DNA from: Candidatus Woesebacteria bacterium
GTDB lineage: Bacteria > Patescibacteriota > Microgenomatia > UBA1400 > PJMF01
Assembly: GCA_017999345.1 (NCBI GenBank)
Contig: JAGNLY010000001.1
Coordinates: forward strand, 6,884-70,883
Direction of reading: 5' to 3'
Length of the DNA stretch: 64,000 nucleotides
The notes under the pieces were generated by a model that saw only the letters and a program-made list of their open reading frames with translations, made no database searches and was not told the origin of the DNA. Positions 32,539 through 53,702 of this stretch are shown here, in pieces. A program made the position numbers and the translations under genes. How positions within the stretch are numbered: the stretch's first letter is position 1; every line of letters begins with the position of its first letter.

Positions 32539-32667
32539 GCGGAGAGCGAGGGATTTACCCTCGTCATGCTCACATTTTTACATTATATTGAAGCTCACTT
32601 GATCAGGCACACCCCTAAGAGTATTTGCTAGGTGAACTAAGTTCACTTAGCGGGCACGAGTCATCCC
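32539..32667 (-). repeat. tRNA-Ser-linked element, copy B
   Basis: It differs from copy A by one base. On the minus strand it ends ...GACGAGGGTAAATCCCTCGCTCTCCGC, which is the T-stem/acceptor 3' strand of tRNA-Ser(UGA). Confidence 0.85.
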
Positions 32668-32714
32668 TCAGTTAAATTTGACAAAAACTGAGCTAAAGCT
32701 CACTTTCTGTCTAA

Positions 32715-32732
32715 TGGCGGAGAGCGAGGGAT
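32715..32732 (-). pseudogene. Isolated 3'-terminal fragment of tRNA-Ser(UGA), with CCA
   Basis: The minus strand reads ATCCCTCGCTCTCCGCCA. The upstream sequence is not tRNA-like. Confidence 0.7.
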
Positions 32733-32789
32733 GAAATTGGAACTTTTTTTCTCGATAAAGTGAGGCCTATAGATTAATAATATTTAAAA

Positions 32790-33374
32790 TCATTTTTTCA
32801 ATACATATAAAGTATGATGAGTGAATCTCAAAAAATTGAAAAAAGATTTTTTGTATACAATTTTCAATCCTATTTTTTTAAATTTATTTTCCCATTCTTT
32901 TTCAGAATTAAAGTTTAAAGCAAAGTTCATACTTAATTCTTCTGGAATATTTCCCAAAACATCTCTGAGTTTTACCCATTGCTTTTCAATATTACTTTTA
33001 TATGTATCTTCAAAAATAATAATTCTCTTTTTCGATATTCTTTTAACTTCCTTTAAGATAACATCTTGCTTTTCAATATGATGTAAGACACCAATTAACA
33101 TAGAAAAATCATAAAAATCATTTTTAAAAGGAATCTTTTGTCCATCGAAGATTGCATGAGGGAGATCGGTTAGGTTCATATCAATAACATCTAATCCATT
33201 GATTTTTACTTTTGAGTTTAAAGAAATATATTTTGAAATTAGCATATTGCCCGCACCCACATCCAAACCATTTTTTAGTGATTTAACATGTGGAGAAATA
33301 AGTTGTGCTAGGTATTTAGCTCTAGTTGCTAAAAATGGCCAATAGATAAATTTTAGTGGATTATTTTTTTTCAT
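32790..33374 (-). CDS. Class I SAM-dependent methyltransferase
   Basis: Motif I GLDVGAGNM and the post-I/II blocks (DFSMLIGVLHHI). It is bracketed by copies of the tRNA-Ser 3' end. Confidence 0.75.
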   Translation of the reverse strand: MKKNNPLKFIYWPFLATRAKYLAQLISPHVKSLKNGLDVGAGNMLISKYISLNSKVKINGLDVIDMNLTDLPHAIFDGQKIPFKNDFYDFSMLIGVLHHIEKQDVILKEVKRISKKRIIIFEDTYKSNIEKQWVKLRDVLGNIPEELSMNFALNFNSEKEWENKFKKIGLKIVYKKSFFNFLRFTHHTLYVLKK

Positions 33375-33474
33375 TAATTAAGTAAATGAGTCAAATATAT
33401 TTATGTCAATTAAAATTGATTTTCATCTGCGTATTTCATCACAAAATATGTGGAGATACTTGATTAAGATTATA

Positions 33475-33606
33475 TGGCGGAGAGCGAGGGATTTACCCTC
33501 GTCATGCTCACATTTTTACATTATATTGAAGCTCACTTGATCGGGCACACCCCTAAGAGTATTTGCTAGGTGAACTAAGTTCACTTAGCGGGCACGAGTC
33601 ATCCCC
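33475..33606 (-). repeat. tRNA-Ser-linked element, copy A
   Basis: The minus strand runs GGGGATGACTCGTGCCCGCTAAG...GAGCATGACGAGGGTAAATCCCTCGCTCTCCGCCA. It lies 48 nt downstream of tRNA-Ser(UGA), after a hairpin. Confidence 0.85.
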
Positions 33607-33654
33607 ACTTATTATGTACAAAAAAATGAACTAAAGTCCATTTTTTGTACATTG

Positions 33655-33738
33655 CGGAGAGCGAGGGATTCGAACCCACGGGACCATAAAGGTCACGGTT
33701 TTCAAGACCGTTGCGATTGACCACTCTGCCAGCTCTCC
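33655..33738 (-). tRNA. tRNA-Ser (anticodon UGA)
   Basis: GGAGAGCTGGCAGAGTGGTCAATCGCAACGGTCTTGAAAACCGTGACCTTTATGGTCCCGTGGGTTCGAATCCCTCGCTCTCCG has a long variable arm. CCA is not encoded. Confidence 0.9.
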
Positions 33739-33817
33739 ATACTTCTAGTCAAGAGAAATATTATACCATTCAATTATATCTTTTTGTCTAGTTTTTTTTA
33801 GTGTACACTTATTTTAT

Positions 33818-34378
33818 ATGATGTCCGAAAATGAAAATGATAATGAGCATGATAAAAAGTATGCTGATTATTTTAAAGATATTCCAAAGCCACGCGTAGA
33901 AGATACTATTTTTGAGTGGGATTCACCAAGTAGGCCGTTCAAAAAAAGAAATAGGCAATATCACACCACCGTTATGACGATTGCGATTTTACTTTGTTTA
34001 ATTTTATTTTTTGCTGGTCAAGTGTTAACAATTGCAGTGGTTATAGCCTTAGTTTTTTTAGCCTATATCATGTCAACAATTCCACCTCACGCAATTACAA
34101 ATAAGATTACATCTTACGGAATTAGATCTGATGAAGATTTGTACTATTGGGATGAACTTGGCAGATTTTGGTTTGATGAAAAATATGGACAAAAAATCCT
34201 TCATGTTGAAGTTGGAAGATTTCCACATCGACTTGCATTGCTTTTAGGAAATGAAAAAGAAGAAACTTTTAAAGAAATTTTATCTGAGGTTTTGCTTATG
34301 CAAAAGCCAGCCCTTACTTCAACTGAGAAATTTGCAGATTGGTTGAAAAATAAAGTTCCTCTCGATCTTGATTCCTAA
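33818..34378 (+). CDS. Hypothetical membrane protein (2 transmembrane helices)
   Basis: Two adjacent hydrophobic helices (TTVMTIAILLCLILFFAGQVLTIAVVIALVFLAYI). No motif recognised. Confidence 0.5.
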   Translation: MMSENENDNEHDKKYADYFKDIPKPRVEDTIFEWDSPSRPFKKRNRQYHTTVMTIAILLCLILFFAGQVLTIAVVIALVFLAYIMSTIPPHAITNKITSYGIRSDEDLYYWDELGRFWFDEKYGQKILHVEVGRFPHRLALLLGNEKEETFKEILSEVLLMQKPALTSTEKFADWLKNKVPLDLDS

Positions 34379-34405
34379 TTATATTTAATTTCAATCAATT
34401 TTCTC

Positions 34406-34414
34406 TGGTATAAT
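34406..34414 (+). promoter_or_regulatory. Extended -10 promoter element for tRNA-Arg
   Basis: TGGTATAAT ends 22 nt upstream of the tRNA 5' end. Confidence 0.4.
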
Positions 34415-34436
34415 ATCGTTTGTAACAAAAATGTTT

Positions 34437-34510
34437 GCACCCATAGCTCAGTTGGATAGAGCATCTGTTTGCGGAATAGAAGGTCGTGTGTTCGAATCAC
34501 ACTGGGTGCA
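34437..34510 (+). tRNA. tRNA-Arg (anticodon GCG)
   Basis: GCACCCATAGCTCAGTTGGATAGAGCATCTGTTTGCGGAATAGAAGGTCGTGTGTTCGAATCACACTGGGTGCA. The anticodon loop is TTGCGGA with G37. Confidence 0.85.
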
Positions 34511-34584
34511 CAAGTTGTGATACTTCAGGCTCGAGAAGATGCCTGGGTACGAGGTGAGAGCGATGCTCTAGAAAGAAATTCATT

Positions 34585-35325
34585 ATGCTTGCCAAAATTA
34601 TTTTTCTAACATTTATCAGCAGCATACTTTCTTTGTTTGGATCCTTTCTATTATCTCTAAAAAAAACTTGGTCAAGAAATTTTACACTTAAGCTAACTGC
34701 CTTTTCTTCTGGAGTTTTATTAACCACCTCATTACTTCATTTAGCTCCAGAATCCATGGAATCTCTAGAACCACAAAATATGTTTACCACCGTATTTTTG
34801 GCAATAGTTTTCTTTTTTGTTTTGGAAAGATTGGTACTTTGGCATCACCACCATGATGATGATTGCCACAATCCTAAACCAACTGCATATTTGATAACAA
34901 TCGGGGATAGCTTCCATAATTTTATTGATGGAGTTTTAATTACTGGAACATTTTTGGTTGATCCAAAGCTGGGGGTTTTTACCGCAATTGCGGTGGCGGC
35001 TCATGAAATTCCTCAAGAAATTGCTGATTTTTCGATAATGGTTGGGGCAGGAGTGAAAAAAAACTCAGCGCTTTTTTATAATTTTGTGTCAGCACTTTTT
35101 TCAGTGCTTGGAGCAATCATTGCTTACTATTTTAGCGCAACAGCTGAGTGGCTAATTCCTTATACAGTGGCCTTTTCAGCGGGAATGTTTTTGTATATCG
35201 CTTTATCAGATTTGATTCCGGAACTTCATCATGACGACTTAGATAAAAGACAGAAATTTGAGCATTTAGTTTTATTTTTCTTGGGAATTTTACTGATTTT
35301 TGTAATTTCACATTTTGAAGTTTAA
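34585..35325 (+). CDS. ZIP-family divalent metal transporter
   Basis: A His-rich loop WHHHHDDDCH, GDSFHNFIDG and AAHEIPQEIADF motifs. Confidence 0.85.
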   Translation: MLAKIIFLTFISSILSLFGSFLLSLKKTWSRNFTLKLTAFSSGVLLTTSLLHLAPESMESLEPQNMFTTVFLAIVFFFVLERLVLWHHHHDDDCHNPKPTAYLITIGDSFHNFIDGVLITGTFLVDPKLGVFTAIAVAAHEIPQEIADFSIMVGAGVKKNSALFYNFVSALFSVLGAIIAYYFSATAEWLIPYTVAFSAGMFLYIALSDLIPELHHDDLDKRQKFEHLVLFFLGILLIFVISHFEV

Positions 35326-35362
35326 AAATTTGTACAATGTTATTGAGTAATTATTAAAAAGT

Positions 35363-35449
35363 GGAGGGATGTCGGAGTGGTTTAACGGCCAGCTCTCGAA
35401 AAGCTTGGGGGACTTACGTCTCACGGGGGTTCGAATCCCCCTCCCTCCG
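35363..35449 (+). tRNA. tRNA-Ser (anticodon CGA)
   Basis: GGAGGGATGTCGGAGTGGTTTAACGGCCAGCTCTCGAAAAGCTTGGGGGACTTACGTCTCACGGGGGTTCGAATCCCCCTCCCTCCG has a long variable arm. Confidence 0.9.
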
Positions 35450-35498
35450 CACTGGTCAGCAATATCGACGAAGTCGATAATTGTTGAGTAGTATGGAA

Positions 35499-35587
35499 GG
35501 GGATGAGAAGCAAGGTGCCCGATCAAGCGAGCCTCAAAATAATATAAGAATGCGAGCGTGACGAGGGTAAATCCCCCTCCCTCCGCA
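35499..35587 (+). repeat. tRNA-Ser-linked element, short copy C
   Basis: GGGGATGAGAAGCAAGGTGCCCGATCAAGCGAGCC...GCGTGACGAGGGTAAATCCCCCTCCCTCCGCA ends in the tRNA-Ser(CGA) 3' strand. It lacks the internal ~44-nt module. Confidence 0.8.
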
Positions 35588-35668
35588 TTGGTCTGAAAAG
35601 AGTTTCAAAATATAAATAGTTAGACACTAAAGTTGATAAAATATTCTTGAAAAGCTACAATAAAAACT

Positions 35669-35962
35669 ATGAAAAATAAAAATATTTACTATTTATATAA
35701 GCTTTTTAATTTCTTAAAAGTTGGCTTTTTTATTTTATTTTCTTCTTGGGTACTTTTATATTTAGTTCCAGCTTTTAGTCAGCCAACTATTTTTACAATA
35801 AAGACTAATATTTTTGAAGTTATTTTTGCAAGACAATATTTTTCAAAATCATTATATATAGCTTTTATACTTGGAATATTAACATTATTACTATTTTTTA
35901 TTACATCATACTTTAGAAAAAAAATAGAGATCATTGATACAAAAAGTAAAAAGAAAAGCTAA
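35669..35962 (+). CDS. Hypothetical small membrane protein (97 aa)
   Basis: Two or three hydrophobic segments. It is very AT-rich and its coding status is uncertain. Confidence 0.4.
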   Translation: MKNKNIYYLYKLFNFLKVGFFILFSSWVLLYLVPAFSQPTIFTIKTNIFEVIFARQYFSKSLYIAFILGILTLLLFFITSYFRKKIEIIDTKSKKKS

Positions 35963-36226
35963 TTATTTTTCAACGGCTTCTTTAGCCTCAAAATATTCAA
36001 ATGAACTAGCATCAAATCTATCTAAAAGACGATGATCCACCATCGAAAATTTGTCCATTACCATTTTTCTTAATTCTCCAGATAAAGGGTTATCTCCAGC
36101 ATCTTCTATTAAATCAGATATTTCTTTTAAATATGAGATTAGCACTTTCTTATTTTCGATATAGATTAGTTTCATTTGCTCAACCTCCTCAGTGGTAAAA
36201 GTTGTTTTATAATTATTATCTGTCAT
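35963..36226 (-). CDS. 87-aa protein of unknown function (paralog of 50502-50765)
   Basis: GGAG in AAAGGAGAT lies about 9 nt upstream of the ATG. A gap-free hand alignment gives 52 of 87 identical residues with the other copy. Confidence 0.6.
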   Translation of the reverse strand: MTDNNYKTTFTTEEVEQMKLIYIENKKVLISYLKEISDLIEDAGDNPLSGELRKMVMDKFSMVDHRLLDRFDASSFEYFEAKEAVEK

Positions 36227-36547
36227 TTTTATCTCCTTTTCATTTACAACTATAATAGTAAATTCAGTATAGCGTTAAATAAAGAAAAATAATATTCAAT
36301 TTAAAAGTAAATATTATTATTGATGAGACCAAATTAAAAAAAACAAGTGCTTACAGAAAAATACAGATCAAAAAACTTACTCATGATTAGAAAAAATATC
36401 TAGTAAAAAGCTTTTTCTTCTTGTAGTAAAGTTCCAAGTACGTCCGATTCGGACCGCCAAGTGAACATGGCGGATGACCAACGAGCTACCACACTGATTA
36501 GTACTCTCAACAAATACAATCATTTTATGATAAGCTAACAAAATAAT

Positions 36548-37354
36548 ATGTCTTCAAAACAAAAAATTGGGCTTGCACTTGGAAGTGGCGGACTGAGAGG
36601 TTTCGCACATATTGGAGTGATAAAAGCTTTAGTTGAGTCAGATATCAAAATCGATGTAATTACGGGAACAAGTTCTGGTGCTGTCATAGGTGGTTTTTAC
36701 GCACTTACAAAAGATATTAAATGGGTAGAAGACATTTTTATGAATCTCAAACTAAATGATTTAGCAACTTTTTCAGATGTTGCATTGAGATCAGGTATAA
36801 TTAAGGGAAATAACATGGAGTCATTTTTAGACAGGTATTTCAATGACGCGAATATTGAAAATTTAGACATAAAGTTCGCAGCAATTGCAACTGATATCCG
36901 AACTACAAAGGATATTATTTTTTCAAAAGGAAGTTTGACAAAAGCTGTAAGAGCCAGTAGTTCACTGCCTGGTTTTATTGACATGTTTCATGATAATGGG
37001 AGTTATTTAATTGATGGTGGGATTTCTCAGCCCGTACCTATCAGAGCAGCTAGAGAATTGGGAGCCGACAAAGTAATTGCTATAAATTTAGATGATTATA
37101 ATTACCGAAAATTTGAATTTAGTAGTAAAACTAAGGCAACCACAGTTGTTCAAGCTTCTTTAAAACTTATTAGGTATAGATTAGGTCAAGAATTATGTAG
37201 TGAAGCAGATTGGGTGATTGAGCCAGATGTATCCGATATAATTAATTGGTCAAGTTTAAGATATCGTGAGAAGAGAATTAAAGCAATTGATATGGGTTAT
37301 CAAGCTGCTATGGAAAAAATTAAGGCTATTAAGTTAGATATTTCCTTGTTTTAA
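36548..37354 (+). CDS. Patatin-like phospholipase
   Basis: The oxyanion motif GSGGLRG, the nucleophile motif GTSSGA and the catalytic Asp in IDGG. Confidence 0.85.
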   Translation: MSSKQKIGLALGSGGLRGFAHIGVIKALVESDIKIDVITGTSSGAVIGGFYALTKDIKWVEDIFMNLKLNDLATFSDVALRSGIIKGNNMESFLDRYFNDANIENLDIKFAAIATDIRTTKDIIFSKGSLTKAVRASSSLPGFIDMFHDNGSYLIDGGISQPVPIRAARELGADKVIAINLDDYNYRKFEFSSKTKATTVVQASLKLIRYRLGQELCSEADWVIEPDVSDIINWSSLRYREKRIKAIDMGYQAAMEKIKAIKLDISLF

Positions 37355-37381
37355 ACATTATTGAGTTAATTTAATAAATAC

Positions 37382-38716
37382 TTAGCCAGCAATATATCTA
37401 AGCCAAATAATTCCAAAAGTAATCAAGCTATTAATAATAACTAAAGGCATAGCCAATCCAAGATATTTAAAGAAAGAAGTTTTCCAACCTTCTTTTTCTG
37501 CCTGACCGAAAGCAATCACATTACATGCAGCAGCAATTGGAGAACCGCCTCCGCCAATTGAGGTTCCTAAATTTAAAGCCCACCATAGTGGATAAACTGT
37601 AATCCCTGCTGTTTCCATCGATTTAATTGCGCCAACCATGGTGATGTTATATGGCACATTATCAATAAATGTTGAAATGACAGCAGATCCTGAGGAAATC
37701 ATTAAAGTTAGATAGGTAATATTTCCACCTGATATTTTTACTAATTGTGCTGCGAGAAGTTCAATTACGTGAGTGAATTCAAGAGAGCCAACAATAATAA
37801 ACAAACCCATGAAAAAGAAGATAATTTCCCAATCAATTAGTTCGCGAAAAACTTTATAAGGTTTTCTATGAAAGATCATCATAGCCAAAAATGCACCACC
37901 AATAGTTATAGTAGCGTTATCTATCGTGATATCCAAAAGATTATGAATTTGTTCTTTGAATATCATAATCAGAATTACCATAATTAATATTGGCAGTCCT
38001 TTGTAAAGAATTTTTCTATTTTTTATTGCGGCTTTTGGTTTAAAGAATTCAACACTTTTTTTGTCTACAACAACTGAGCTCAAGTCTTTTTTAAAAATAA
38101 TAATGCTATAAATTAAAGTTACGACCGACAGAATCATTACAATTAACCCAGAATTAGAAACAACCTCTGCAAAACTAAGTCCAACAGTTTTAGCTTGATA
38201 GTAGGTGGTTGGATCAGAGATTGGAGTCATTGCGCCACCTATATTTGACATCATGATCGTAACGAAAAAATATGGTAAATATGGAAGTTTGAATGTTTTA
38301 ATTAAGATAACCAGAATTGGAATGATAATTAATACAGTAGGAATGTTTGAAAAGAGAGCAGTCATAAAAAGTGTTAGGTATCCCAAGCTAATTAACAACA
38401 AAACAGGATGACCTTTCACTAGTTTAACAATCCAAATTGCTAGCGCTTCAAATATTCCAGACTCTTTAACAATTCCAACCAAAACCATCATGCCTATTAC
38501 AAAGCCTAAAATATCTAAATTATTAGCAATAAACTCAAAGGCATTTTTTTGTGAAGAATTGGTGGCGGTCCTAAATACTTGCATCAAAATTAATATTGTG
38601 GCACCCAAAATTGAGACAATCACTTTGTTAAGTTTTTCACTGATTAGAAAAAAATAAACAACTGATAGAGTTGCTAGTGAAATGACTGAGAAAATTGATA
38701 ATCCAAAAAGTTCCAT
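37382..38716 (-). CDS. ArsB/NhaD-superfamily ion or anion permease
   Basis: About 11-12 transmembrane helices with an internal-repeat organisation typical of CitMHS/ArsB_NhaD permeases. It is paired with a CBS protein. Confidence 0.65.
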   Translation of the reverse strand: MELFGLSIFSVISLATLSVVYFFLISEKLNKVIVSILGATILILMQVFRTATNSSQKNAFEFIANNLDILGFVIGMMVLVGIVKESGIFEALAIWIVKLVKGHPVLLLISLGYLTLFMTALFSNIPTVLIIIPILVILIKTFKLPYLPYFFVTIMMSNIGGAMTPISDPTTYYQAKTVGLSFAEVVSNSGLIVMILSVVTLIYSIIIFKKDLSSVVVDKKSVEFFKPKAAIKNRKILYKGLPILIMVILIMIFKEQIHNLLDITIDNATITIGGAFLAMMIFHRKPYKVFRELIDWEIIFFFMGLFIIVGSLEFTHVIELLAAQLVKISGGNITYLTLMISSGSAVISTFIDNVPYNITMVGAIKSMETAGITVYPLWWALNLGTSIGGGGSPIAAACNVIAFGQAEKEGWKTSFFKYLGLAMPLVIINSLITFGIIWLRYIAG

Positions 38717-38731
38717 ATATTTATCTCTGCT

Positions 38732-39232
38732 TTAAGCCTTATTAGGTTTGTCTACTGAGTCTTTCATTTCGTTATAATATTTTGGCATCTTCATTCCATA
38801 GGCAAGTGCCTTTTTAATCTCTGAACGAGTAATAACACCCAACAATTCTCCTTGTTCTATCACTGGAACAATGTATAAATCATTTTTCAAAAAATCAGCT
38901 GCGACGGCCATAATGTTGTCATTTAGATTGGTAATAGTAAATTTTTTCCTCATGATTGTACTCACCTTTTTATTCTGAAGCTCAGCACAATTTTCACTAA
39001 AAAAACCAGGACGATACATCGCAGCAGCCATTTGGATATTGTGACGAAATTGACGAGGAATTGTGGCAGCGGCTATATCTTGAAGAGCGAGAATTCCGAC
39101 AACTTTTTTGTCATTATCAAGTACAACTAAACCATTAACTTTTTTCTCAATTAAGATTCTGAGAGATTCAAAAATAGTGGCTTCTTGAGAAATGGTGATA
39201 ACATGTTTGTGATAGAGTTCGGAAATAAGCAT
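38732..39232 (-). CDS. CBS-domain pair protein
   Basis: Two CBS repeats (VITISQEATIFESL...VVGILALQDI and FTITNLNDNIMAV...LLGVITRSEI). Confidence 0.75.
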   Translation of the reverse strand: MLISELYHKHVITISQEATIFESLRILIEKKVNGLVVLDNDKKVVGILALQDIAAATIPRQFRHNIQMAAAMYRPGFFSENCAELQNKKVSTIMRKKFTITNLNDNIMAVAADFLKNDLYIVPVIEQGELLGVITRSEIKKALAYGMKMPKYYNEMKDSVDKPNKA

Positions 39233-39293
39233 AAATTTATTCTAGCAGATTTTGAAAATTACTGTCTATATGTCAATCTGATACAATTCAATT

Positions 39294-39752
39294 ATGTCTT
39301 TAATATTAATTTCTTTTTGGGGCTTGGTAAATTTATCTTTGTCCTTAATTTCTGTTTCAAAAATTAGAAATAATAAGGAAAAATGTGATTTCATCTGGTG
39401 GTGGGCTTCACCATCTGGGGCTTTTGTTTGGGAAGATATGTTTGTTTTTGGAATGTTGCATAGCGGTTTGGCTTTTTATAGCGTAATAATTAATAATCCA
39501 GAATTTTGGCTAATTTCATTTCTTGTTTTTTGGATAGTCAGAAGTGCTGGCGAAACACTATATTTTTTCTTGCAACAATTTATTGTTCCAAAACATCATC
39601 CTCACGAAATTAGTAGCCATTTTGCTAGACTTAGAAAAATTTTTGGAAATATTTCAGATCAAAAGTGTTTTATTATCATGCAGGTTACGATGCAATCGAT
39701 TTTAGTTTTATCAATTATTTTGCTCTATATTATAATGTTCAGAAAAATATGA
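39294..39752 (+). CDS. Hypothetical membrane protein
   Basis: Four hydrophobic segments. Its stop overlaps the next start as ATGA. Confidence 0.45.
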   Translation: MSLILISFWGLVNLSLSLISVSKIRNNKEKCDFIWWWASPSGAFVWEDMFVFGMLHSGLAFYSVIINNPEFWLISFLVFWIVRSAGETLYFFLQQFIVPKHHPHEISSHFARLRKIFGNISDQKCFIIMQVTMQSILVLSIILLYIIMFRKI

Positions 39753-41632: not shown

Positions 41633-41653
41633 TATTTTTATTTTAAAACTTTT

Positions 41654-41706: not shown

Positions 41707-41717
41707 GCAAATTTTCC

Positions 41718-42755: not shown

Positions 42756-42816
42756 TAAATATTTGAAAAGCTCTCGCAGGCAGTTCGCCTGAATGTTCGC
42801 TTTTCAAATATTTATT
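42754..42816 (+). repeat. Palindromic intergenic element, copy E6 (apical hairpin AGGC/GCCT)
   Basis: AATAAATATTTGAAAAGC-TCTCGC-AGGCagttcGCCT-GAATGTTC-GCTTTTCAAATATTTATT. The 18-bp outer stem is perfect. Confidence 0.85.
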
Positions 42817-42892
42817 AAAGTCAATAAAATTAACTGATTTATACTATAATAATTAATATACGAAATCAAAATATTTTTTATAGTGAACATGG

Positions 42893-43513
42893 ATGGAAAG
42901 AATGAAAAAAATTATTTTAGCTTCACAGTCACCACAAAGAAAATTGTTAATGGAGGCACTTGGTTTACCGTTTGAAGTTATGCCGGCAAATATTGATGAA
43001 AAAAATATCATTGAGGTTGATCAAAAGTTGAGGTGTCAAAAAATTGCCAAAGCGAAAGCTGACTTTATTAAAAAAACACTAATGGAGAGCGGCGTCAAAA
43101 ATAATAACCACTACATAATTATTGCAGCAGATACCTATACAGTTTTTAACGGCAAGGCATATGAAAAACCTGAGAACTTAAATGAAGCACGACGAATGTT
43201 GGCAGAACAATCTGGTCAGGCCGGACTTTGTTTTAGCGGTTTTGCATACATTGATACAACTGAAAAACTTGAATATAACTCGGTTGCAACCACAAGCTTA
43301 GTTTTCAGAGATCTTTCAAATTCTGAAATAGAAAAATATGTTAAAGAAAATCCAGTCTTAACATGGTCGGCTGGATTTTGTCCTGCATATCCAGCTGGGG
43401 TAAATTTAATTTCTGAAATTAATGGTTCGTTGAGTAGTTTTACACATGGCCTTCCAATGGAGATGCTGATACCACTTTTGAAACGATCCGGAGTTTTTGA
43501 TGAAGAAAATTAA
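42893..43513 (+). CDS. maf: Maf-like nucleoside triphosphate pyrophosphatase
   Basis: IILASQSPQRKLLMEALGLPFEV and IIAADT blocks. Confidence 0.8.
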   Translation: MERMKKIILASQSPQRKLLMEALGLPFEVMPANIDEKNIIEVDQKLRCQKIAKAKADFIKKTLMESGVKNNNHYIIIAADTYTVFNGKAYEKPENLNEARRMLAEQSGQAGLCFSGFAYIDTTEKLEYNSVATTSLVFRDLSNSEIEKYVKENPVLTWSAGFCPAYPAGVNLISEINGSLSSFTHGLPMEMLIPLLKRSGVFDEEN

Positions 43514-44717: not shown

Positions 44718-44767
44718 ATTGATATTAATTGAAACGTTCTTAAAGAATATAAATTATTGGTTAAAAA

Positions 44768-46051
44768 ATGCTAACAAAACTTGAAATAAAAACAGAAATA
44801 AAATCACTTATAAAAAAATTTCTTATTTGGAGAGTTTTATTAATTATTCCAGTTATTTTGGCCACTATCTTTTTGCCATTTAGAGATTCATCTTTATATA
44901 CAATTTTTACAGGACAGGTTGACAAATATGTTGAAGTTGATGATTCATTAATTTATCCATGGGGGAATTTTGACGGAGTTCATTATTTAGCAATTTCTTA
45001 TAGGGGGTATATTGATGAAGGAAGATTTTTACCTCTATATCCAATATTAATTAGAATCTTATCAACCTTTATTGCTACTATTTTTGATTTAGAAATTACA
45101 GGAAGTTTGTTATTTTGGTCAGGTATATTTTTAAGTAATTTATTTTTCTTTTTAAGTTTAGTTTTACTCAAAAAATTATTGGAGTTAGATTTTAAAAAGG
45201 AAATTGTAGATAAAGCAATTATTTTAATTCTTGTTTTTCCTACAGCATTTTTCTTTGTTTCAATTTATACCGAAAGTTTATTTTTATTTTTGAGTTTGTT
45301 AATTTTATTATTGGCTAGAAAAAAGAAATGGTGGAAAGCAATTATCCTCTCTTCACTGTTGGCAATTACAAGGTTGCCAGGAACTTTAATTTTAATTCCA
45401 TTAATTTATGAATACATAATTAGTGAAACTAGTTTTGAAATGAATGCTAAAAAAATGTTTTCTGCAAAAAATAAAAAAGATTTTAAACTTAATCTATTCA
45501 ATCTTTTTCATTCATTATGTAAAAAATGGTCTGGATTTTTAAAGTTCTTAATTACTCCTATTTTACTAATTGTCTTTGCAGCTTTTAATAATTACCATTG
45601 GCAGGACCCATTCTATTTTGTTCATGCGCATGCTGCTTTGGGTAATGGTAGAGAGGTGGAGGGATTTGTATTTCCATTGATAACTGTATATAGATATCTA
45701 AAAATATTTTTAACAGTTTCATGTAGACAATATGAATTTTGGGTAGCATTATTAGAATTTTCATCATTAATTTTTGCACTAATTGGATTAGTTTTTGCAT
45801 TCATCAAAAAAGTTAGACTTTCATATTTATTATTTGCTTTAGCAATAATTCTATTACCTTTATTGTCAGGAACATTAACTGGATTTCCGAGATATTTAAT
45901 TTTGGCATTTCCAATATTTTTAGGTTTTGCAAATATATTTGAAAATAAAAATTATCGCGTAAAAGTTTTATGGAGAGTTTTAATTTTTATTTGTGCGTCA
46001 CTGCAGTTTTTATTAATTATGCTTTTTGCTAGAGGATGGTTTGTGGCCTAA
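44768..46051 (+). CDS. GT-C-type membrane glycosyl/mannosyltransferase (PIG-V-like)
   Basis: Polytopic. The WGNFDGVHYLAISYRGY loop resembles the PIG-V family W-x-x-W-D-x-x-x-Y motif. Confidence 0.5.
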   Translation: MLTKLEIKTEIKSLIKKFLIWRVLLIIPVILATIFLPFRDSSLYTIFTGQVDKYVEVDDSLIYPWGNFDGVHYLAISYRGYIDEGRFLPLYPILIRILSTFIATIFDLEITGSLLFWSGIFLSNLFFFLSLVLLKKLLELDFKKEIVDKAIILILVFPTAFFFVSIYTESLFLFLSLLILLLARKKKWWKAIILSSLLAITRLPGTLILIPLIYEYIISETSFEMNAKKMFSAKNKKDFKLNLFNLFHSLCKKWSGFLKFLITPILLIVFAAFNNYHWQDPFYFVHAHAALGNGREVEGFVFPLITVYRYLKIFLTVSCRQYEFWVALLEFSSLIFALIGLVFAFIKKVRLSYLLFALAIILLPLLSGTLTGFPRYLILAFPIFLGFANIFENKNYRVKVLWRVLIFICASLQFLLIMLFARGWFVA

Positions 46052-46061
46052 GCTTGGTGAA

Positions 46062-46514
46062 TTAATTTAAATCTAAGGACAGAAGATGGTTTTCATAGTC
46101 TGAAAATCCTAACCTTTTATAGAGTTTTTTTGCCAAGATATTGTTTGGAGTCACTTCAAGCTGAATTGCCACAGAATTTTCTGGCATGGTTTTTATTAGA
46201 TAATTAATAAATGTCGAACCAATTCCTTGGCTTCTATATTCTGGTTTAATATATAGTTCATCTAACATTAATATGTTTCCTCCAAACTCATTGCTCCAAA
46301 AATTAATCAGAATTGAATAGCCGATAATTTCATTATCATTTTTTATTGTTAAAATCTTTCCACGAGCTGGTTGAGACCTAAGTGTTTTAAAGGTGAGCTC
46401 AATTTTTTCTAAACTTATTGGTTTTCCAGTTGGATCCTCATGATAAAGATTATTCATTAGGTTGGAAATATCTTTTTCGTCGTTTTTCGACCATACTTCA
46501 AATTTGATCATCAT
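46062..46514 (-). CDS. GNAT-family N-acetyltransferase
   Basis: The acetyl-CoA motif A YRSQGIGSTFINYL within a GNAT-sized fold. Confidence 0.8.
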   Translation of the reverse strand: MMIKFEVWSKNDEKDISNLMNNLYHEDPTGKPISLEKIELTFKTLRSQPARGKILTIKNDNEIIGYSILINFWSNEFGGNILMLDELYIKPEYRSQGIGSTFINYLIKTMPENSVAIQLEVTPNNILAKKLYKRLGFSDYENHLLSLDLN

Positions 46515-46562
46515 ATCTTTTCATATTATAGTAAAATTACCTCAAATAAAATAAGGATAACT

Positions 46563-47268
46563 ATGAAAAATAACTTAGAAAAATCTATATTAAATAACGT
46601 CGAACGTCCGATGTTCATCTTAGCTCATCCAGATGATGAAGCTTTGTTTTGGGGAGCTTTAAACTGCCTTTGTTAAAGCTCAAGTTTCACCTTACTTACT
46701 TTATTTAACATTTGGAGAGTTGGGAATCCCTCCAAAATCTATACTTACTCCCCATGACATGGCTCAAATTAGAGCAGAAGAACTAAAAAATGCTGCTGGT
46801 TTTTTGAACGCCAGTTATAAAATTCTTAGTTTTCCAGATTTAAATTTGCCATTTGTATCTTTTGAATCACTTGTAAAATCAGTTTTGCCAATTGTTAGAT
46901 TACAAAATATTGACACAATCTTTTCATTTCACCCTAATGAAACAACGAGAAAATTTGATCATCCTGATCATAATATTGCTGGCCAAATTGCTCGCTATGT
47001 TGGAGCGGCTGCAGATGTTAAGAACTTCATGCCAGAATATAAAGTTCTTTCTAATCGTCCAAAGCTTTATTTGTGGACAAGTAAAAATTCTTTGGCAACA
47101 CATAGTATGAAGTTGAGCAAGCCAGTTAGAAAGAGAAGAGATGAATATTTAATGGAAAATTATCCTTCACAATTTAGTATTCAAAATTACCTTCTTTGGA
47201 AAAGAATATTTGCAAAAATCACTAAAAGCAAAGTTGGACATTTAGAGAGATATCAAAAGGTGAGATAA
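46563..47268 (+). pseudogene. PIG-L/LmbE-family deacetylase interrupted by a +1 frameshift
   Basis: Frame A reads MKNN...PMFILAHPDDEALFWGALNCLC and stops at 46674-46676. Frame B, open from 46663, continues TAFVKAQVSPYLLYLTFGELG...HPDHN. The shift must occur within 46663-46673. Confidence 0.7.
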
Positions 47269-47278
47269 TATAGTCAAT

Positions 47279-48343
47279 ATGATAGAAATAAATGAAACAT
47301 ACGAAGTTGGCGAAGTGATTGAAATTGTTAGTCAACAAGCTTTTTCTACAGATGGCCAAAGTTTTTATGTTCAAACAGTAAAAGTTAAACCCAATTCTTC
47401 CACTGATGAACAGATAATTACGCTTGGCAGCGAGTTCCAACCTCTTAATGAAAATCAAAAATTAAGTGTTGGATCCAAGGTTATTATTTCTCAGCAACCA
47501 TCAATGGAAAACCAAACACAGCTTGTTGTGAATGACACTTATCGTATTCCAGTTTTGGTGTCGCTGGCGGTTATATTTACTTTTTTAGTGATTATGATTG
47601 GAGGAAAGCGTGGGGTGTTTTCAATCATGGGAATGATTTTTAGTTTGTTTGTGTTGATTTCATTTATTGTGCCACATATTTTGTCAGGGGATAATCCTTT
47701 TTTGATTACATTTATCGGTGCTACTGTAACTTCGGTGGTCACGATGTATGTTTCTCATGGTTTTAAAAGACAAACACACATTGCGCTTATTTCTATGATG
47801 ATTTGTTTGGGATTTGCGGCATTATTGTCAACAACTGCTGTCGAGCTTGGACATTTTGTTGGTTTGGGTTCAGAGGATGCTTCTTTCTTGCAATTTGGAT
47901 CTGCGCAAAAAATTAATTTGCAGGGACTATTATTGGCAGGGATTTTATTGGGAACGTTAGGTATTTTGGATGATATAACTTTGGCACAGACAGCTGTGAT
48001 TGAACAATTAAAAGCAGTGAATAAAAAACTTGATTTTTCTGAGTTGTATTTTAGAGGTTTAGAAGTTGGTAAGGATCACGTAGCCTCTTTGGTTAATACT
48101 TTAATTTTTGCCTATGCTGGCACCAGTTTGCCACTTTTTCTTTTATTTACACTTTTTAGAACTCAGCCGAATTGGGTGATTTTAAATTCAGAAATTGTTG
48201 CCGAAGAAATTATTAGAACTTTGGTTGGTTCAATTGCCTTAATAATGGCCGTTCCAATTACTACTGCAATTGCGGCTTATTGGATTACTAGAAAAAATAT
48301 AAAGGTTGATGGTTTGGACAGATTAAGCTCACACGGACATTAA
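47279..48343 (+). CDS. YibE/F-like polytopic membrane protein
   Basis: An N-terminal soluble segment is followed by about 7 transmembrane helices. GILDDITLAQTAVIEQL resembles the conserved YibE/F loop. Confidence 0.45.
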   Translation: MIEINETYEVGEVIEIVSQQAFSTDGQSFYVQTVKVKPNSSTDEQIITLGSEFQPLNENQKLSVGSKVIISQQPSMENQTQLVVNDTYRIPVLVSLAVIFTFLVIMIGGKRGVFSIMGMIFSLFVLISFIVPHILSGDNPFLITFIGATVTSVVTMYVSHGFKRQTHIALISMMICLGFAALLSTTAVELGHFVGLGSEDASFLQFGSAQKINLQGLLLAGILLGTLGILDDITLAQTAVIEQLKAVNKKLDFSELYFRGLEVGKDHVASLVNTLIFAYAGTSLPLFLLFTLFRTQPNWVILNSEIVAEEIIRTLVGSIALIMAVPITTAIAAYWITRKNIKVDGLDRLSSHGH

Positions 48344-48401
48344 AATGTTAAATTTTTTTAGGACAACTTTGTATTTAGGACAATTTTAATTTTGAGGCAA
48401 T

Positions 48402-49439
48402 TTATAATTTATCTGCAATTAATTGAGCATATGTTTGGGGGTCAATAGGTACGACACCTTGTCTTTTGGTTCCGCCGGCATTCCAGCGCCCACCGAAATA
48501 AGGGATGTCCATCTCATTTAGTCTCTTGTTTGTTGGAAAAGCATTGCCGGCACGAACCTTGTATTCCCAGCCTCCTGCTTTAGGAGTTGCAACAACAAAA
48601 ATGGTAGCATCTTCTTTTGCCGGCGGGAATAATTCACTTCTTAGTGTATTTTCACTTATTATTAGGTACACGCCCTTACCCATATATTGCAATTTGCCGT
48701 CATTAACCAGTTGTTGCGCTTCGTCTCTTTGAGACAATCTTTGTTTTAAAAGTAATTGTGCTTCTTCGGGTAACGTTTCATTACGTAAAAACTTATTGAG
48801 ACAGAAAAGGCTAAATTTTAAGTCGCGTTTTGGTTCAAGCGCGACAAGCAAATCACCGATGTTATTTTTTCGACCGGTGTGATCAGCATCTATAGCTGCT
48901 TGGTTAAATCTTTGGTCTGAGGCATCAACTTGCCCCGTAAGTACTAAAACACTTAGTAAGCTATCAGCATCTACATGGTTAATAATTATCACACAGTCTT
49001 TATCAGCCATTGAACCATGTTCATGAACATATGTTGTAACTAGAGGGGTAGTTGAGATGGGACGAGCCATTTCTGTAAGCGGAATGTGATGGTCAATATT
49101 AAGTACATTGCTTGAATCATGCATCACACCAATGAGAGTACCATCTTTGCTTCGGACTTCAGTTCCTTTTTCGTGTTCACTTACTGGAAAATCAAGCCCA
49201 ATTATTATTATTGACTTGGATATATTTGGAATCATTGATCGTAATTCTGCAGCAGTAATTTTTGAAAAAAGAGGAACGAGATATAGTTGTTCATATTTTT
49301 GAATTGGTTCCTCTAAACCTAAAACATCAATTGCTTCTACTGGAACATCGAATTCCGTCAGCCATTCCTTTTCGACAATTAATTTTGGGTTTGCAGAAGC
49401 AATTTCTTGAGTTTGCGATGCGACATCAAATATTTTCAT
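48402..49439 (-). CDS. Divergent DHH/DHHA1-like phosphoesterase (tentative), G+C-rich
   Basis: NIDHH, INHVDADSLLS and a C-terminal FGGRWNAGGT (GGGH..AAG-like) are present, but the motif order is atypical. Confidence 0.35.
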   Translation of the reverse strand: MKIFDVASQTQEIASANPKLIVEKEWLTEFDVPVEAIDVLGLEEPIQKYEQLYLVPLFSKITAAELRSMIPNISKSIIIIGLDFPVSEHEKGTEVRSKDGTLIGVMHDSSNVLNIDHHIPLTEMARPISTTPLVTTYVHEHGSMADKDCVIIINHVDADSLLSVLVLTGQVDASDQRFNQAAIDADHTGRKNNIGDLLVALEPKRDLKFSLFCLNKFLRNETLPEEAQLLLKQRLSQRDEAQQLVNDGKLQYMGKGVYLIISENTLRSELFPPAKEDATIFVVATPKAGGWEYKVRAGNAFPTNKRLNEMDIPYFGGRWNAGGTKRQGVVPIDPQTYAQLIADKL

Positions 49440-49541
49440 ATTATGGATGATAATACATTATTTTTTCTTTTCATAGAAGTTCTATAGTATGGACATTGAT
49501 GTTTGATATAATCAGATGGTATTAGTTGAAAGGAGAAAAAT

Positions 49542-49700
49542 ATGCAAGGAAAAAAAGAAGAGTTACCAGCAACTGAAGGTCAGCTAAAACAAATAGCTGA
49601 TTTCTTACACAAAGAGGTAGAAGAACTTACTGTGAAAGAGGTTGAGGAAGTTGGAGGTCAAGCAACACTAGAAGAGCAACAACATAGCGGATCTGCATGA
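49542..49700 (+). CDS. 52-aa acidic small protein (not in the ORF track)
   Basis: AAAGGAG lies 6 nt upstream of the ATG. It reads MQGKKEELPATEGQLKQIADFLHKEVEELTVKEVEEVGGQATLEEQQHSGSA. Confidence 0.45.
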   Translation: MQGKKEELPATEGQLKQIADFLHKEVEELTVKEVEEVGGQATLEEQQHSGSA

Positions 49701-49760
49701 TCAAGTTTTTTAATTTAATTTTAATTTAAAAAAAACATACCGCACAGTATTTTAAAGAAA

Positions 49761-49785
49761 GGTTGGGCAAATATTTCACCCAACC
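49761..49785 (-). terminator. Terminator hairpin of the 49806-50294 gene
   Basis: The minus strand reads GGTTGGGtgaaatatttgCCCAACCTTTCTTT. Confidence 0.6.
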
Positions 49786-49805
49786 AATTCTTCAAAACAC
49801 ATTTT

Positions 49806-50294
49806 TTACCCCCAAAACTTCCAAACTCCCAACAGGCTAACTAAAACGATTATTAACCCAATTAATGGCAGCGTATACTTGCTCGCCATCCATGAGGGTT
49901 TTTCAACATGCCAGATTGGTGACTTGGAGAGAATGAAAGCTCCAAAGCACAACCCGGTCATTGCCAGCATTCCAGCAAAGTTTCCAACAAAAGCGATTAA
50001 AATTGCACATGCATTCAAAATAAACTGAATCGTATATGCAATGAAACCGATTGTGGGATCTCCCTTGGATATGGCTAGAGCAAATAGTGCGCCGACTAGC
50101 ATGAGTGTGGCCATAAAACATAATGCGGCCACAACTCTAAGCATTACTACCTCATTTTTCCACAGCGCAACGCTCACCAAAATGTTGGCGATTAACATCG
50201 CGAGAGTGGTTTCGTACGGTTTTTCATACAATATATTTCTCATTGTCATCTCCATGTGTTTATCAAATTTTTTGAGTGGTAAATTTCTATTCAC
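49806..50294 (-). CDS. Hypothetical membrane protein, G+C-rich
   Basis: Four or five transmembrane helices. The track start is GTG 50294. ATG 50243, with GGAG 6 nt upstream, is an alternative start. Confidence 0.5.
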   Translation of the reverse strand: MNRNLPLKKFDKHMEMTMRNILYEKPYETTLAMLIANILVSVALWKNEVVMLRVVAALCFMATLMLVGALFALAISKGDPTIGFIAYTIQFILNACAILIAFVGNFAGMLAMTGLCFGAFILSKSPIWHVEKPSWMASKYTLPLIGLIIVLVSLLGVWKFWG

Positions 50295-50501
50295 TCAAGC
50301 AAAATGAGTGCTGGAGTAGTGTGGGATGCCATCAACTTGCTTGAGTGAATAGAGGTGCGGTATGTTAAAGAACATGTTTGAAAAGAAAAATAAAGCGCAA
50401 TGCCAAATCCATCTATAACAAACGATGGAATTATATCAAAATTTATACAAAAATACAATTATAGGACAGTTTGTTTCAATTTAGACGAGAATTGGTGGGA
50501 G

Positions 50502-50765
50502 TTAAGCTTCTTGATTTTCGTTTGCTTCGAAATATTCAAAAGAAGCTACGTCAAATTTATCCCAAAGTCGGTGGTCAATCATAGAAAATTTGTCCATTAG
50601 CATTTTTCTGTTTTCACCTGTAATTGGGGTTTCTCCAGAATCTTCAATTATTTGTGCAACTTCTCGTAAATATGAAGTCAGAATTTTTTTTGCTTCCAAA
50701 TATGCAGTCTTTTTTTGCATAATCTCATCTGCAGTAAATGTGGTTTTATATTGAATGTCTGACAT
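50502..50765 (-). CDS. 87-aa protein of unknown function (paralog of 35963-36226)
   Basis: AAGGAGTAATT precedes the ATG. The shared blocks are YKTTFT, SYL, IED.G, RKM.MDKFSM.DHRL and SFEYFEA. Confidence 0.6.
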   Translation of the reverse strand: MSDIQYKTTFTADEIMQKKTAYLEAKKILTSYLREVAQIIEDSGETPITGENRKMLMDKFSMIDHRLWDKFDVASFEYFEANENQEA

Positions 50766-50809
50766 AATTACTCCTTAATTCTTTGTATGATGTATAATTT
50801 TATTTTAAT

Positions 50810-51196
50810 ATGCATAAAAAAGATCTACAAGAAATAATAGCACATTTTACTTTTGTTGGTACTATTGACCGAAAGATATTCACTAAACAAAATATTACAG
50901 AGGACATCAATGCATATTGTATCTCCACAGAGCATGGTTATTTTGTGCTTTTTCAAGCAGATTATATTTCAAGCGATAAGGATGGAATTGAAAAAGTAGT
51001 TTTCCATATTTGTAAAAGAAATCTGAATGTTATTCCTCGATTAATGATTCCCTTGATTAAGGGCGGTGAATATCAACTTATAACTGAAATAGAAGGTTCT
51101 AAGAAGAAATATTTAAACAAGTTTGTGACTGTGAGTGTTGCCCTAAATGGTGATGCTCGATTTTATAAGCGTTGGTTTAAGTCTCGAACAAAATAG
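50810..51196 (+). CDS. Hypothetical protein (128 aa)
   Basis: An intact ORF divergent from the 87-aa gene. No motif recognised. Confidence 0.45.
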   Translation: MHKKDLQEIIAHFTFVGTIDRKIFTKQNITEDINAYCISTEHGYFVLFQADYISSDKDGIEKVVFHICKRNLNVIPRLMIPLIKGGEYQLITEIEGSKKKYLNKFVTVSVALNGDARFYKRWFKSRTK

Positions 51197-51231
51197 AAAT
51201 AATTCTTGCTCGTAGTGAAGGATGTTCATTG

Positions 51232-51362
51232 TCGGAGGTGAAGGGATTTACCCTCGTCATGCTCATAATTTTAAAATAATTTTTGACATTCGCTTGATAG
51301 GGCACACCTCTAAGAGTATTTTCTAGGTGAACTAAGTTCTCTTAGCGGGCGAAAGTCATCCC
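51232..51362 (-). repeat. tRNA-Ser-linked element, copy D
   Basis: The minus strand runs GGGATGACTTTCGCCCGCTAAGAG...GAGCATGACGAGGGTAAATCCCTTCACCTCCGA. The end matches tRNA-Ser(GGA), not Ser(UGA). Confidence 0.85.
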
Positions 51363-51411
51363 TTAATTTAATTTGACAAAAACTGAGCTAAAGCTCACTT
51401 TTCGTCAAAAG

Positions 51412-51494
51412 CGGAGGTGAAGGGATTCGAACCCTTGGATCCAAAAGGATCACGCTTTCCAGGCGTGTGCAATTGACCACTATGCGACACCTCC
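51412..51494 (-). tRNA. tRNA-Ser (anticodon GGA)
   Basis: GGAGGTGTCGCATAGTGGTCAATTGCACACGCCTGGAAAGCGTGATCCTTTTGGATCCAAGGGTTCGAATCCCTTCACCTCCG. Confidence 0.9.

Positions 51495-53614: not shown

Positions 53615-53702
<88 letters not shown>

Follow-up and report, generated by a model that had tools for sequence, protein, structure and literature searches.

A gene-less hairpin unit at tRNA 3′ ends in Paceibacteria-type bacteria, with a tail that matches the local tRNA

The DNA described here is a stretch of 64,000 nucleotides (nt) from a Candidatus Woesebacteria bacterium (contig JAGNLY010000001.1, positions 6,884 to 70,883, of GenBank assembly GCA_017999345.1), which we refer to throughout as the window. 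The window is AT-rich and holds four copies of a short repeat that ends in a copy of a tRNA 3′ end. The best explanation for the repeat is a protein-less unit of ~130 to 190 bp, composed of a long hairpin and a conserved, hairpin-like core, that inhabits Paceibacteria-type bacteria of the candidate phyla radiation (CPR). To the more specific proposal, that the unit is a non-autonomous insertion element specific for tRNA 3′ ends and its tail a target or attachment-site (att) duplication, we give about an even chance. The tail itself is best read as the target repeated (tRNA positions ~58/59 to 74/75), whether insertion creates this repeat or requires it, and not as a variable end of the element.

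An initial annotation of the window had reported four copies of a ~130-nt element beside tRNA-Ser genes. The copies are real. The 17-mer TGACGAGGGTAAATCCC occurs exactly four times in the window (at 32550, 33488, 35559, and 51243, against a chance expectation of 0.03), and alignment of the four regions gives a common layout of tRNA-like 3′ end, hairpin of ~45 nt, core, and then a tail equal to a tRNA 3′ end (Table 1). By ARAGORN and Rfam, copy B is immediately preceded by tRNA-Ser(UGA), copy C by tRNA-Ser(CGA), and copy D by tRNA-Ser(GGA), so the order of tRNA-Ser, hairpin, and element that had been claimed for three copies holds for these. Copy A is the exception, its upstream neighbor being a 53-nt pseudo-tRNA 3′ end and not a real tRNA. 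Size needs a similar correction: cores A, B, and D measure ~130 nt because each contains a nested 47-nt hairpin insertion, with 7-bp GTGCCCG repeats on both sides, whereas copy C and most relatives measure ~85 to 90 nt. The nested insertion is absent from copy C, from locus L002 (loci in other genomes are cited by handles of this kind), and from every other genome compared; it is either a smaller mobile hairpin or the product of a partial duplication that gene conversion carried to other copies. Cores A and B are almost the same, while their hairpins differ. The hairpin of copy B (hp_B) is homologous to those of A and D, and the changes in its stem are compensatory in the alignment.

The tail follows the neighboring gene, as had been noted from the window. 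Counted from AATCC, the exact match of tail and tRNA is longest in C (18 nt), with 17 nt in B and 16 nt in D, and among 21 distinct unit/tRNA pairs from other genomes the identical run has a median of 17 nt (typically 16 to 21), the first 17 nt being free of mismatches in 15 of the 21. Tails set against non-cognate tRNA ends, as a control, differ on average at 5.1 of 12 positions. The duplicated segment therefore starts in the T-loop (A58/59) and ends at C74/A75. Identity runs a few bases past the tRNA, into trailer DNA that does not belong to it, in copy C, L007, L017, and L021, which favors a copy made at the level of DNA over a copy of mature tRNA. Read by eye from the sequences, CCA follows ~8 to 9 of ~26 tails versus ~2 of ~22 adjacent tRNA genes, and tail B and the tails of L001, L016, and L017 bear a CCA where the adjacent gene has none. 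Tail B continues ...GCCATAT, which is the native tRNA end and flank of L002, whereas the tRNA now present in the window has ...GCAATGT at this place, as fits the distal copy being the native end, displaced. The tails of L009, L014, and L020 have decayed.

Relatives were gathered by sequence-pattern scans of one-genome-per-species contigs and Joint Genome Institute (JGI) metagenomes. The scans gave ~30 distinct true relatives and a few chance matches, all of the relatives lying in Patescibacteria-type contigs. They sit at tRNA-Ser(UGA, CGA, and GGA) and also at tRNA-Cys(GCA) (L006, L007, L019, and L030), tRNA-Ala(GGC) (L013 and L028), and tRNA-Trp(CCA) (L017), and at each tRNA species the tail is cognate to the local tRNA. 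The specificity for tRNA-Ser first proposed is thereby lost. At least three core types share the one layout. Type 2 is found after tRNA-Ser(GGA) in L015, and also in L044 and L010, and ends ...GAATCGTR/AATCC plus the cognate tail (a slash marks a junction). Type 3, in L041, has the hairpin GGCA-A-GC-GA...GA-GC-C-UGCC, homologous to helices P2/P3 of the type 1 core described below, then GUCCGAAGGAC/C and the tail. Two blocks of 10 to 17 nt are invariant across very divergent genomes. A covariance model (R1) recovered no divergent copies beyond those of the sequence pattern and missed core types 2 and 3. The IMG/VR collection held only chance matches to the 17-mer and no unit, phage and plasmid collections gave no match to the element, and Rfam 15 (gathering thresholds and E<=10; the window region and five loci) returned only tRNA, tmRNA, and chance matches. 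Our literature searches found no description of this element; a paper on tRNA introns in Patescibacteria treats group I introns of the anticodon loop and not this element (PMC13011429).

Sites can also be empty. In L004 and L045, the flank follows directly after tRNA-Ser(UGA), and in L042 and L045 directly after tRNA-Ser(CGA), with no hairpin or core between; the occupied counterparts are the window, L002, and L016. The hairpin, missing along with the core, is therefore part of the unit, and the two are adjacent in all of ~30 loci. No near-isogenic empty/filled pair was found for the type 1 unit itself. There is an exact pair for a 39-nt type 3 hairpin, which lies at AAATCC/CCC inside the type 1 tail of L033 and is absent from the same tail in L029. 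The AAATCC/C junction is the breakpoint of further insertions in L033 and L020. Units also combine: two of different types stand in tandem behind one tRNA-like end in L010, L014 contains a type 2/type 1 chimera, and identical hairpin–core pairs lie on both sides of an island in L008.

The core has a predicted fold. RNAalifold and explicit pair counts agree on an imperfect hairpin on the tRNA-sense strand, in which the minimal core of ~85 to 90 nt runs GGGAUG, a linker, GUGCCCGAUCAAGCGAA, an AU-rich variable loop, and UUGAGCMUGACGAGGGUAAAUCCC. Helix P1 pairs UGCCC with GGGUA (G.U becomes A-U in four sequences) and is separated by a tandem G.A with a bulged C from P2, which pairs UCA with UGA (C-G becomes U.G in two sequences). 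P3 pairs GC with GC, followed by a second tandem G.A; here C-G becomes U-A, fully compensatory, in L021, and L017 has Watson–Crick pairs in place of G.A. At the base, P0 pairs the 5′ foot GGGAU with the AUCCC of the core/tail junction. Wobble changes are compatible with the sense strand only. Five pairs vary on both sides and most are invariant, and the minimum folding energy is about that of shuffled sequences (z about -1.2). The hexamers that the initial annotation took for protein-binding arm sites, GTGAGC twice in copy A and GCGAGC twice in copy C, turn out to be the two strands of P3 and pair with each other (G-C, Y-G, G.A, A.G, G-Y, C-G). L002 pairs GCGAGC with GTGAGC, so the hexamers need not be identical.

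P0 reaches beyond the core into the tRNA-specific part of the tail. In 21 of 27 units, the base just 5′ of GGG is paired with tRNA nt 64, with six pair types seen, and in L017 a change from G-C to A-U at this position matches the T-stem of tRNA-Trp. The covariation score is 0.129 versus 0.080 in shuffles, a value that none of 500 shuffles reaches and that exceeds all slid controls. In units at tRNA-Ser(UGA), the foot pairs with T64 although the T-stem of the tRNA itself has a T.T mismatch there; the foot is therefore not a simple copy of the 5′ strand of the T-stem. If the core folds on the tRNA-sense strand, as single-stranded DNA (ssDNA) or as RNA, its foot N-GGGAU would pair with AUCCC-N64 of the target copy, and this pairing could help to recognize the site. 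The covariation between foot and T-stem suggests a role for the folded sense strand in recognizing AUCCC-N.

Units are not alone at these tRNA ends. L044, the orthologous locus of a relative fetched through a conserved 186-aa neighbor (the anchor protein is 80% identical; L041/L044), has an element of ~5.5 kb after tRNA-Ser(CGA). It encodes a 495-aa large serine recombinase (LSR; Resolvase, Recombinase, and Zn ribbon domains), a rolling-circle-type Rep, a DNA methylase with a Bsp6I-type restriction enzyme, and a ThsB-TIR protein. Its left junction is ...CCCTCCGCCA/TTTTTTTAAATCG, and its right end, ...AAAGTTCCAATTTCATCCCACGCTCCCCGCCA/TTTTTAAAA, is the pseudo-tRNA module that also stands before window copy A. 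LSR crossover occurs at the tRNA 3′ end (..GCCA/TTTTT) and not in the T-loop. The module is a fixed, imperfect tRNA mimic whose T-loop region is five bases longer than that of a tRNA; the extra bases would fit the attP-type half-site spacing of serine integrases. It ends islands in L008, L010 (three times), L020, L024, L026, and L029, and the exact motif GTTCCAATTTCATCCC is found in L008, L010 (three times), L020, L024, L029, and L044. A Rep homolog lies in the L029 island, an LSR homolog upstream of the decayed copy of L014/L035, and a second LSR abuts tRNA-Ser(UGA) in L047. The LSR reading frames run antisense into the tRNA 3′ end (L044 11575-11610; L047 6839-6905), their products ending ...WRREGDSNPRG. 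The att site is thus inside the recombinase frame, and integration alters the C terminus of the protein.

The module explains the odd neighbor of copy A. In the window, a 194-aa methyltransferase open reading frame (ORF), for which an exact-protein look-up returned no record, has its stop codon just before the module; we considered this ORF as a small recombinase and rejected the idea since Pfam identifies a methyltransferase. In the window and in L010 alike, a type 1 tail leads directly into this methyltransferase island, and the left flank is shared (TATAAT...AATCAATTT...TTGAC), the tail being of Ser(UGA) type in the first and Ser(GGA) type in the second. Islands therefore insert 3′ of tRNA-like ends, which may belong to a true tRNA or to the tail of a unit. 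At their left ends, the window island and the LSR element show no similarity (the alignment scores below shuffles). Compared with an LSR element, the window island (32715-33474) has the attP-derived right end and, in place of a recombinase gene, the methyltransferase only. The module before copy A being an LSR-type right end, the island is a recombinase-less remnant between two units. At tRNA-Ser(UGA), L002 has unit A only, with an orthologous hairpin and the same flank as the window and without the nested insertion. The most economical history has five steps: the window locus would have begun as tRNA and unit A; unit B would then have been added beside the tRNA; an LSR-type island would have inserted at the junction of tail B and hp_A; its recombinase would have been lost; and cores A and B would have been homogenized.

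Three further observations concern these ends and islands. L010 has a cassette-like array (150-2540) of three pseudo-tRNA modules ~0.85 and 1.3 kb apart, with hairpin units at both ends; the intervals hold the 194-aa methyltransferase ORF, preceded by a type 1 unit, and a 340-aa ORF. In L020 (60-230 and 861-1646), the tail after a type 1 core has been replaced, and a GC-rich region shows long-range complementarity (CTCCTCCCCC...GGGGGGAGGAG); the island there has small ORFs, an HNH homing-endonuclease-type protein, and a pseudo-tRNA module at its end, with no Rfam match. A conserved motif of ~30 nt, CTGGCGGATGGCCTCTGAGCTACCGCA, directly follows tRNA-like 3′ ends in three genomes (Table 1).

What we see, then, is a unit between two copies of a tRNA 3′ end, the upstream tRNA intact, at tRNA-like ends shared with LSR/Rep integrative elements and their recombinase-less remnants. 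If the unit is an insertion element, it would enter at the boundary of T-loop and T-stem by means of an enzyme acting in trans. There are two ways this might work. A site-specific recombinase could use a 17- to 18-bp identity block, with the tRNA as attL, the core plus displaced native end as attR, and a new 3′ end for the tRNA provided by the unit; alternatively, staggered cuts ~17 to 18 bp apart could yield a target-site duplication. Staggered cutting explains cognate tails on similar bodies at different tRNAs (hp_A/core A and hp_D/core D) without extra assumptions. The recombinase route needs retargeting or gene conversion because similar bodies sit at different tRNAs. An att-type duplication left by a miniature element was among the explanations first offered for the window, and the empty sites, tandems, chimeras, AAATCC/C breakpoint, and LSRs at the same ends all speak for it, minus the restriction to tRNA-Ser and with no recombinase found for the unit itself.

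Several points weigh against an insertion element. Among ~45 loci, none links the unit to a recombinase, transposase, or nuclease, and an excised or circular form was not seen. The early statement that the window has no integrase, transposase, or reverse transcriptase agrees with a Pfam scan of ~40 ORFs, mostly from 20.7 to 64 kb and several without a match, the part upstream of 20.7 kb being outside the scan. LSRs cross over at the tRNA 3′ end and so are not obvious movers of the unit. By inspection (hairpin start versus ...GAGGGTAA), the unit has no terminal inverted repeats; a duplication of 17 to 18 bp is longer than those usually made by DDE transposases; and the 39-nt type 3 insertion of L033 came without any duplication. 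A classical integrase would act on an element with a tRNA-specific 3′ end of its own, yet closely similar hairpin–core bodies sit at different tRNAs in one genome (A and B versus D), and matching ends are found at at least six tRNAs; such a model would call for frequent retargeting, gene conversion, or target copying. The invariant blocks and helix covariation would also fit an RNA selected by the host.

That last point leads to the alternative that survives best, though we regard it as rather unlikely, namely that core and tail are a functional noncoding RNA (ncRNA). Its basal helix would mimic the T-stem and its single-stranded 3′ tail the acceptor 3′ strand (plus CCA); it would possibly be transcribed with or next to the tRNA and possibly serve as a decoy or competitor for an enzyme that binds tRNA ends, or as a partner for the tRNA 5′ strand. 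Covarying sense-strand helices, tandem G.A motifs, and invariant internal loops argue for an RNA, as do a foot that pairs with nt 64 even against the T.T mismatch of the T-stem and the higher frequency of CCA after tails than after the adjacent genes. Such an RNA is harder to reconcile with patchy presence, with tandem, chimeric, and decayed copies, and with empty sites in relatives. Moreover, the hairpin between tRNA and core often resembles an intrinsic terminator, scans of both strands found no conserved promoter, the folding z score is modest, Rfam has no match, and the 5′ acceptor strand is absent in cis.

It is unlikely, too, that the units are immobile in themselves and are arms left by internal deletion of larger tRNA-integrating elements (the hairpin as the P′ side, the core as the P side), with gene conversion or unequal crossing-over alone carrying them to other loci afterwards. 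Islands do decay to recombinase-less remnants (window, L008, L010, and L014), the pairs around the L008 island are identical, and cores A and B are nearly so though their hairpins differ. However, none of ~30 loci has a full-length version with genes between hairpin and core, identical deletion end-points would be needed at six tRNAs or more, and the 39-nt type 3 copy is a clean insertion.

Less likely again is a new class of nucleic-acid-guided mobile element, in which the folded sense strand (ssDNA or RNA), through its 5′ foot and possibly its tail, would pair with any tRNA gene along the 3′ strand of T-stem and acceptor, direct its own insertion, and copy 17 to 18 nt of the target with the help of a trans-acting enzyme. 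If true, the unit would be a protein-less, retargetable “tRNA-end homing” module.

A distinct and quite improbable idea is that core and tail form the scaffold and 3′ guide of a guide RNA that brings an RNA-guided enzyme of TnpB-, Cas12-, or bridge-RNA-like kind, either a nuclease or a recombinase, to the tRNA gene; the adjacent motif would be TTCGA, and cutting or insertion would occur ~17 to 20 bp away at the tRNA end. A scaffold with ~17 nt equal to adjacent DNA does resemble the omega RNAs at transposon ends, the insertion point is 17 to 18 bp from the T-loop motif, and a programmable guide would account for cognate tails at at least six tRNAs. But a filled locus would target itself, several tails have decayed, Rfam 15 at E<=10 returned no omega-RNA or CRISPR match, and there is no TnpB, IscB, Cas, or IS110 among the scanned ORFs (the window and selected islands of L008, L014, L029, and L020) or in the Pfam tables of L041-L047.

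Retroviral primer-binding sites span the same 17 to 18 nt, from the 3′ end to position 58/59, and the tails with a CCA missing from the adjacent gene would suit one, but the early suggestion of a retroelement primer-binding site, read from the opposite strand of the tail and complementary to the 3′ end of the tRNA, is very improbable: no reverse transcriptase is found among the scanned ORFs or the precomputed gene tables of fetched loci, there are no repeats like long terminal repeats, most tails have no CCA (about one-third do), and identity continues into trailer DNA. Patescibacteria are reported to lack group II introns (PMC13011429), which also counts against it. Readings as a ribozyme, K-turn, T-box, tmRNA-like RNA, or split or permuted tRNA were dropped, with no Rfam support, no 3-nt bulge, and no cis 5′ acceptor strand.

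Table 1. Features of the units and neighboring DNA (window positions unless a locus is named).
Feature	Position	Strand	Basis or remark
tRNA-Ser(UGA), intact, target gene of units B and A	33654..33738	-	ARAGORN; Rfam tRNA, 47.4 bits
Hairpin hp_B (AATGTACAAAAAATGGACTTTAGTTCATTTTTTTGTACAT...), begins directly after tRNA position 74	33609..33653	-	sequence
Core B, type 1	33495..33608	-	alignment; covariance-model match 33476-33556, 73 bits
Tail B, AAATCCCTCGCTCTCCGCCA, copy of the tRNA-Ser(UGA) 3′ end	33475..33494	-	exact run with tRNA
Cargo island with 194-aa methyltransferase ORF (32790-33374)	32768..33474	-	Pfam Methyltransf_23, Methyltransf_11
Pseudo-tRNA 3′ end, the “module” (GGCCTCACTTTATCGAGAAAAAAAGTTCCAATTTCATCCCTCGCTCTCCGCCA)	32715..32767	-	alignment with right end of the L044 LSR/Rep element
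Hairpin hp_A, terminator-like: TGAGC TTTA GCTCA, then T run	32670..32714	-	sequence
Core A, type 1	32556..32669	-	alignment, 17-mer, covariance model
Tail A, AATCCCTCGCTCTCCGC	32539..32555	-	sequence; downstream flank same as L002
tRNA-Ser(CGA), intact	35363..35450	+	ARAGORN; Rfam 44.8 bits, at E-value threshold
Hairpin hp_C, long: CTGGTCAGCAATATCGAC GAA GTCGATAATTGTTGAGTAG, no T run	35451..35496	+	sequence, alignment
Core C, type 1, long-linker variant, no nested insertion	35497..35568	+	covariance-model match 35497-35587, 75 bits
Tail C, AATCCCCCTCCCTCCGCA	35569..35586	+	exact run with tRNA
tRNA-Ser(GGA), intact	51411..51494	-	ARAGORN, Rfam
Hairpin hp_D, close to hp_A by eye (identity not computed)	51365..51410	-	alignment
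Core D, type 1, with nested insertion	51249..51364	-	alignment, 17-mer, covariance model
Tail D, AATCCCTTCACCTCCG	51233..51248	-	exact run with tRNA
Nested 47-nt insertion (CTAAGTGAAC TTA GTTCACCTAG...)	core A 32604-32650; core B 33542-33588; matching part of core D 51249-51364	-	
CTGGCGGATGGCCTCTGAGCTACCGCA motif	L009 ~6040-6120 (-); L026 ~2750-2800 (-); L015 ~640-700 (-)		

Some other features of the window and of the relatives deserve a record. Beyond the three tRNA-Ser genes in Table 1, ARAGORN and Rfam find tRNAs for Ser(GCU), Ser(ACU), Arg, and Val and a tmRNA in the window. The tRNA-Ser(ACU) at 53615-53702 (+; ARAGORN; loop TTACTAA, CCA encoded) is unusual in being a serine tRNA with A34. 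Four other tRNA-Ser genes share a 20-kb stretch with it, and it has no hairpin unit. We considered the orphan tail of L015 as the site of this tRNA and rejected it, the flanking proteins not being homologous. The trailer of tRNA-Ser(GCU), 52203-52260 (+), begins like the copy C hairpin (CACTGATCAGTAAG...) and reaches ...GAAGGAT without core or tail; it may be the remnant of a unit. At 23612-24029 (-) lies a standard one-piece tmRNA with a predicted tag peptide that is unusually long at 32 aa (ADKIATAKSMLTKVKSDVASYFSAPSYAALVA). A GC-rich stretch of ~70 nt (CAGGCTCGAGAAGATGCCTGGGTACGAGGTGAGAGCGATGCTC, 34512-34584, +) between tRNA-Arg and a ZIP zinc-transporter gene has no Rfam match and could be a leader or regulatory RNA. 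Among the relatives, some contigs with Paceibacteria-type tRNA clusters and units are labeled Pseudomonadales/Gammaproteobacteria (L002, L005, L006, L008, and L009) or Limisphaerales (L003); these are probably mis-binned or mislabeled.

Why does any of this matter? CPR genomes are tiny, with few recognized mobile elements, and here their tRNA 3′ ends emerge as organized hot spots for mobile DNA, at which cargo gathers (methyltransferase, restriction–modification, Thoeris-like TIR, and HNH proteins) and the units multiply tRNA-like landing sites. If pairing of foot and repeat selects the target, it would amount to a simple, retargetable integration signal. On a practical note, the tails can mislead the annotation of tRNAs and att sites in metagenome-assembled genomes.

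How does the unit compare with what is known? Elements that integrate at tRNA genes have non-autonomous derivatives, including cis-mobilizable elements, tandem “accretion” arrays, and islands of the tycheposon type. In these as in the unit, an intact tRNA stands on one side of the inserted DNA, and the tRNA 3′ end, beginning in the T-loop, is directly repeated on the other side; tandem arrays with partial tRNA repeats at their borders, recombinase-less members, and presence/absence polymorphism are shared as well. Unlike them, the unit is only ~130 to 190 bp and gene-less, its conserved 85-nt core folds and base-pairs with the repeat derived from the tRNA, one and the same body is found at at least six tRNA species with the cognate repeat at each, and no integrase has been identified. 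The LSR elements share tRNA-Ser 3′ ends with the units (L044 and L047), and the window island bears their attP-derived pseudo-tRNA end. That end, however, is a fixed, imperfect mimic with crossover at the 3′ end, whereas the tail of the unit is an exact local copy.

Miniature inverted-repeat transposable elements (MITEs) and small palindromic repeats, such as REP/BIME, Correia, and the Rickettsia palindromic elements, are short, noncoding, and hairpin-forming, and some lie in or near RNA genes. The unit is likewise short, noncoding, hairpin-forming, multi-copy, nested, and chimeric. It departs from MITEs in having no terminal inverted repeats, in a duplication of 16 to 21 bp at defined tRNA positions, and in being strictly tied to, and oriented by, tRNA 3′ ends. 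Integron attC sites and the ends of IS200/IS605 elements are folded single-strand recombination substrates, and the core resembles these in its imperfect hairpin, conserved stem boxes, bulges, variable terminal loop, and strand-specific folding, and in an internal segment that pairs with the cleavage or target site. Its consensus has no GTTRRRY/RYYYAAC sites, no IntI or TnpA was found, and its primary sequence is highly conserved, unlike that of attC. Casposons insert at the 3′ ends of tRNA genes with target duplications of 14 to 15 bp and carry Cas1, a polymerase, and terminal inverted repeats; the unit shares the insertion site and the long duplication and has none of the three.

The LSR elements are ordinary tRNA-integrating elements, and an intact tRNA followed by a repeated 3′ fragment and tandem islands is classical. 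What appear to be undescribed are a gene-less hairpin unit with a highly conserved core that can fold, the base pairing between this unit and the duplicated part of the tRNA, its presence at at least six tRNA species, and its modular variants (types 1 to 3 and the nested insertions).

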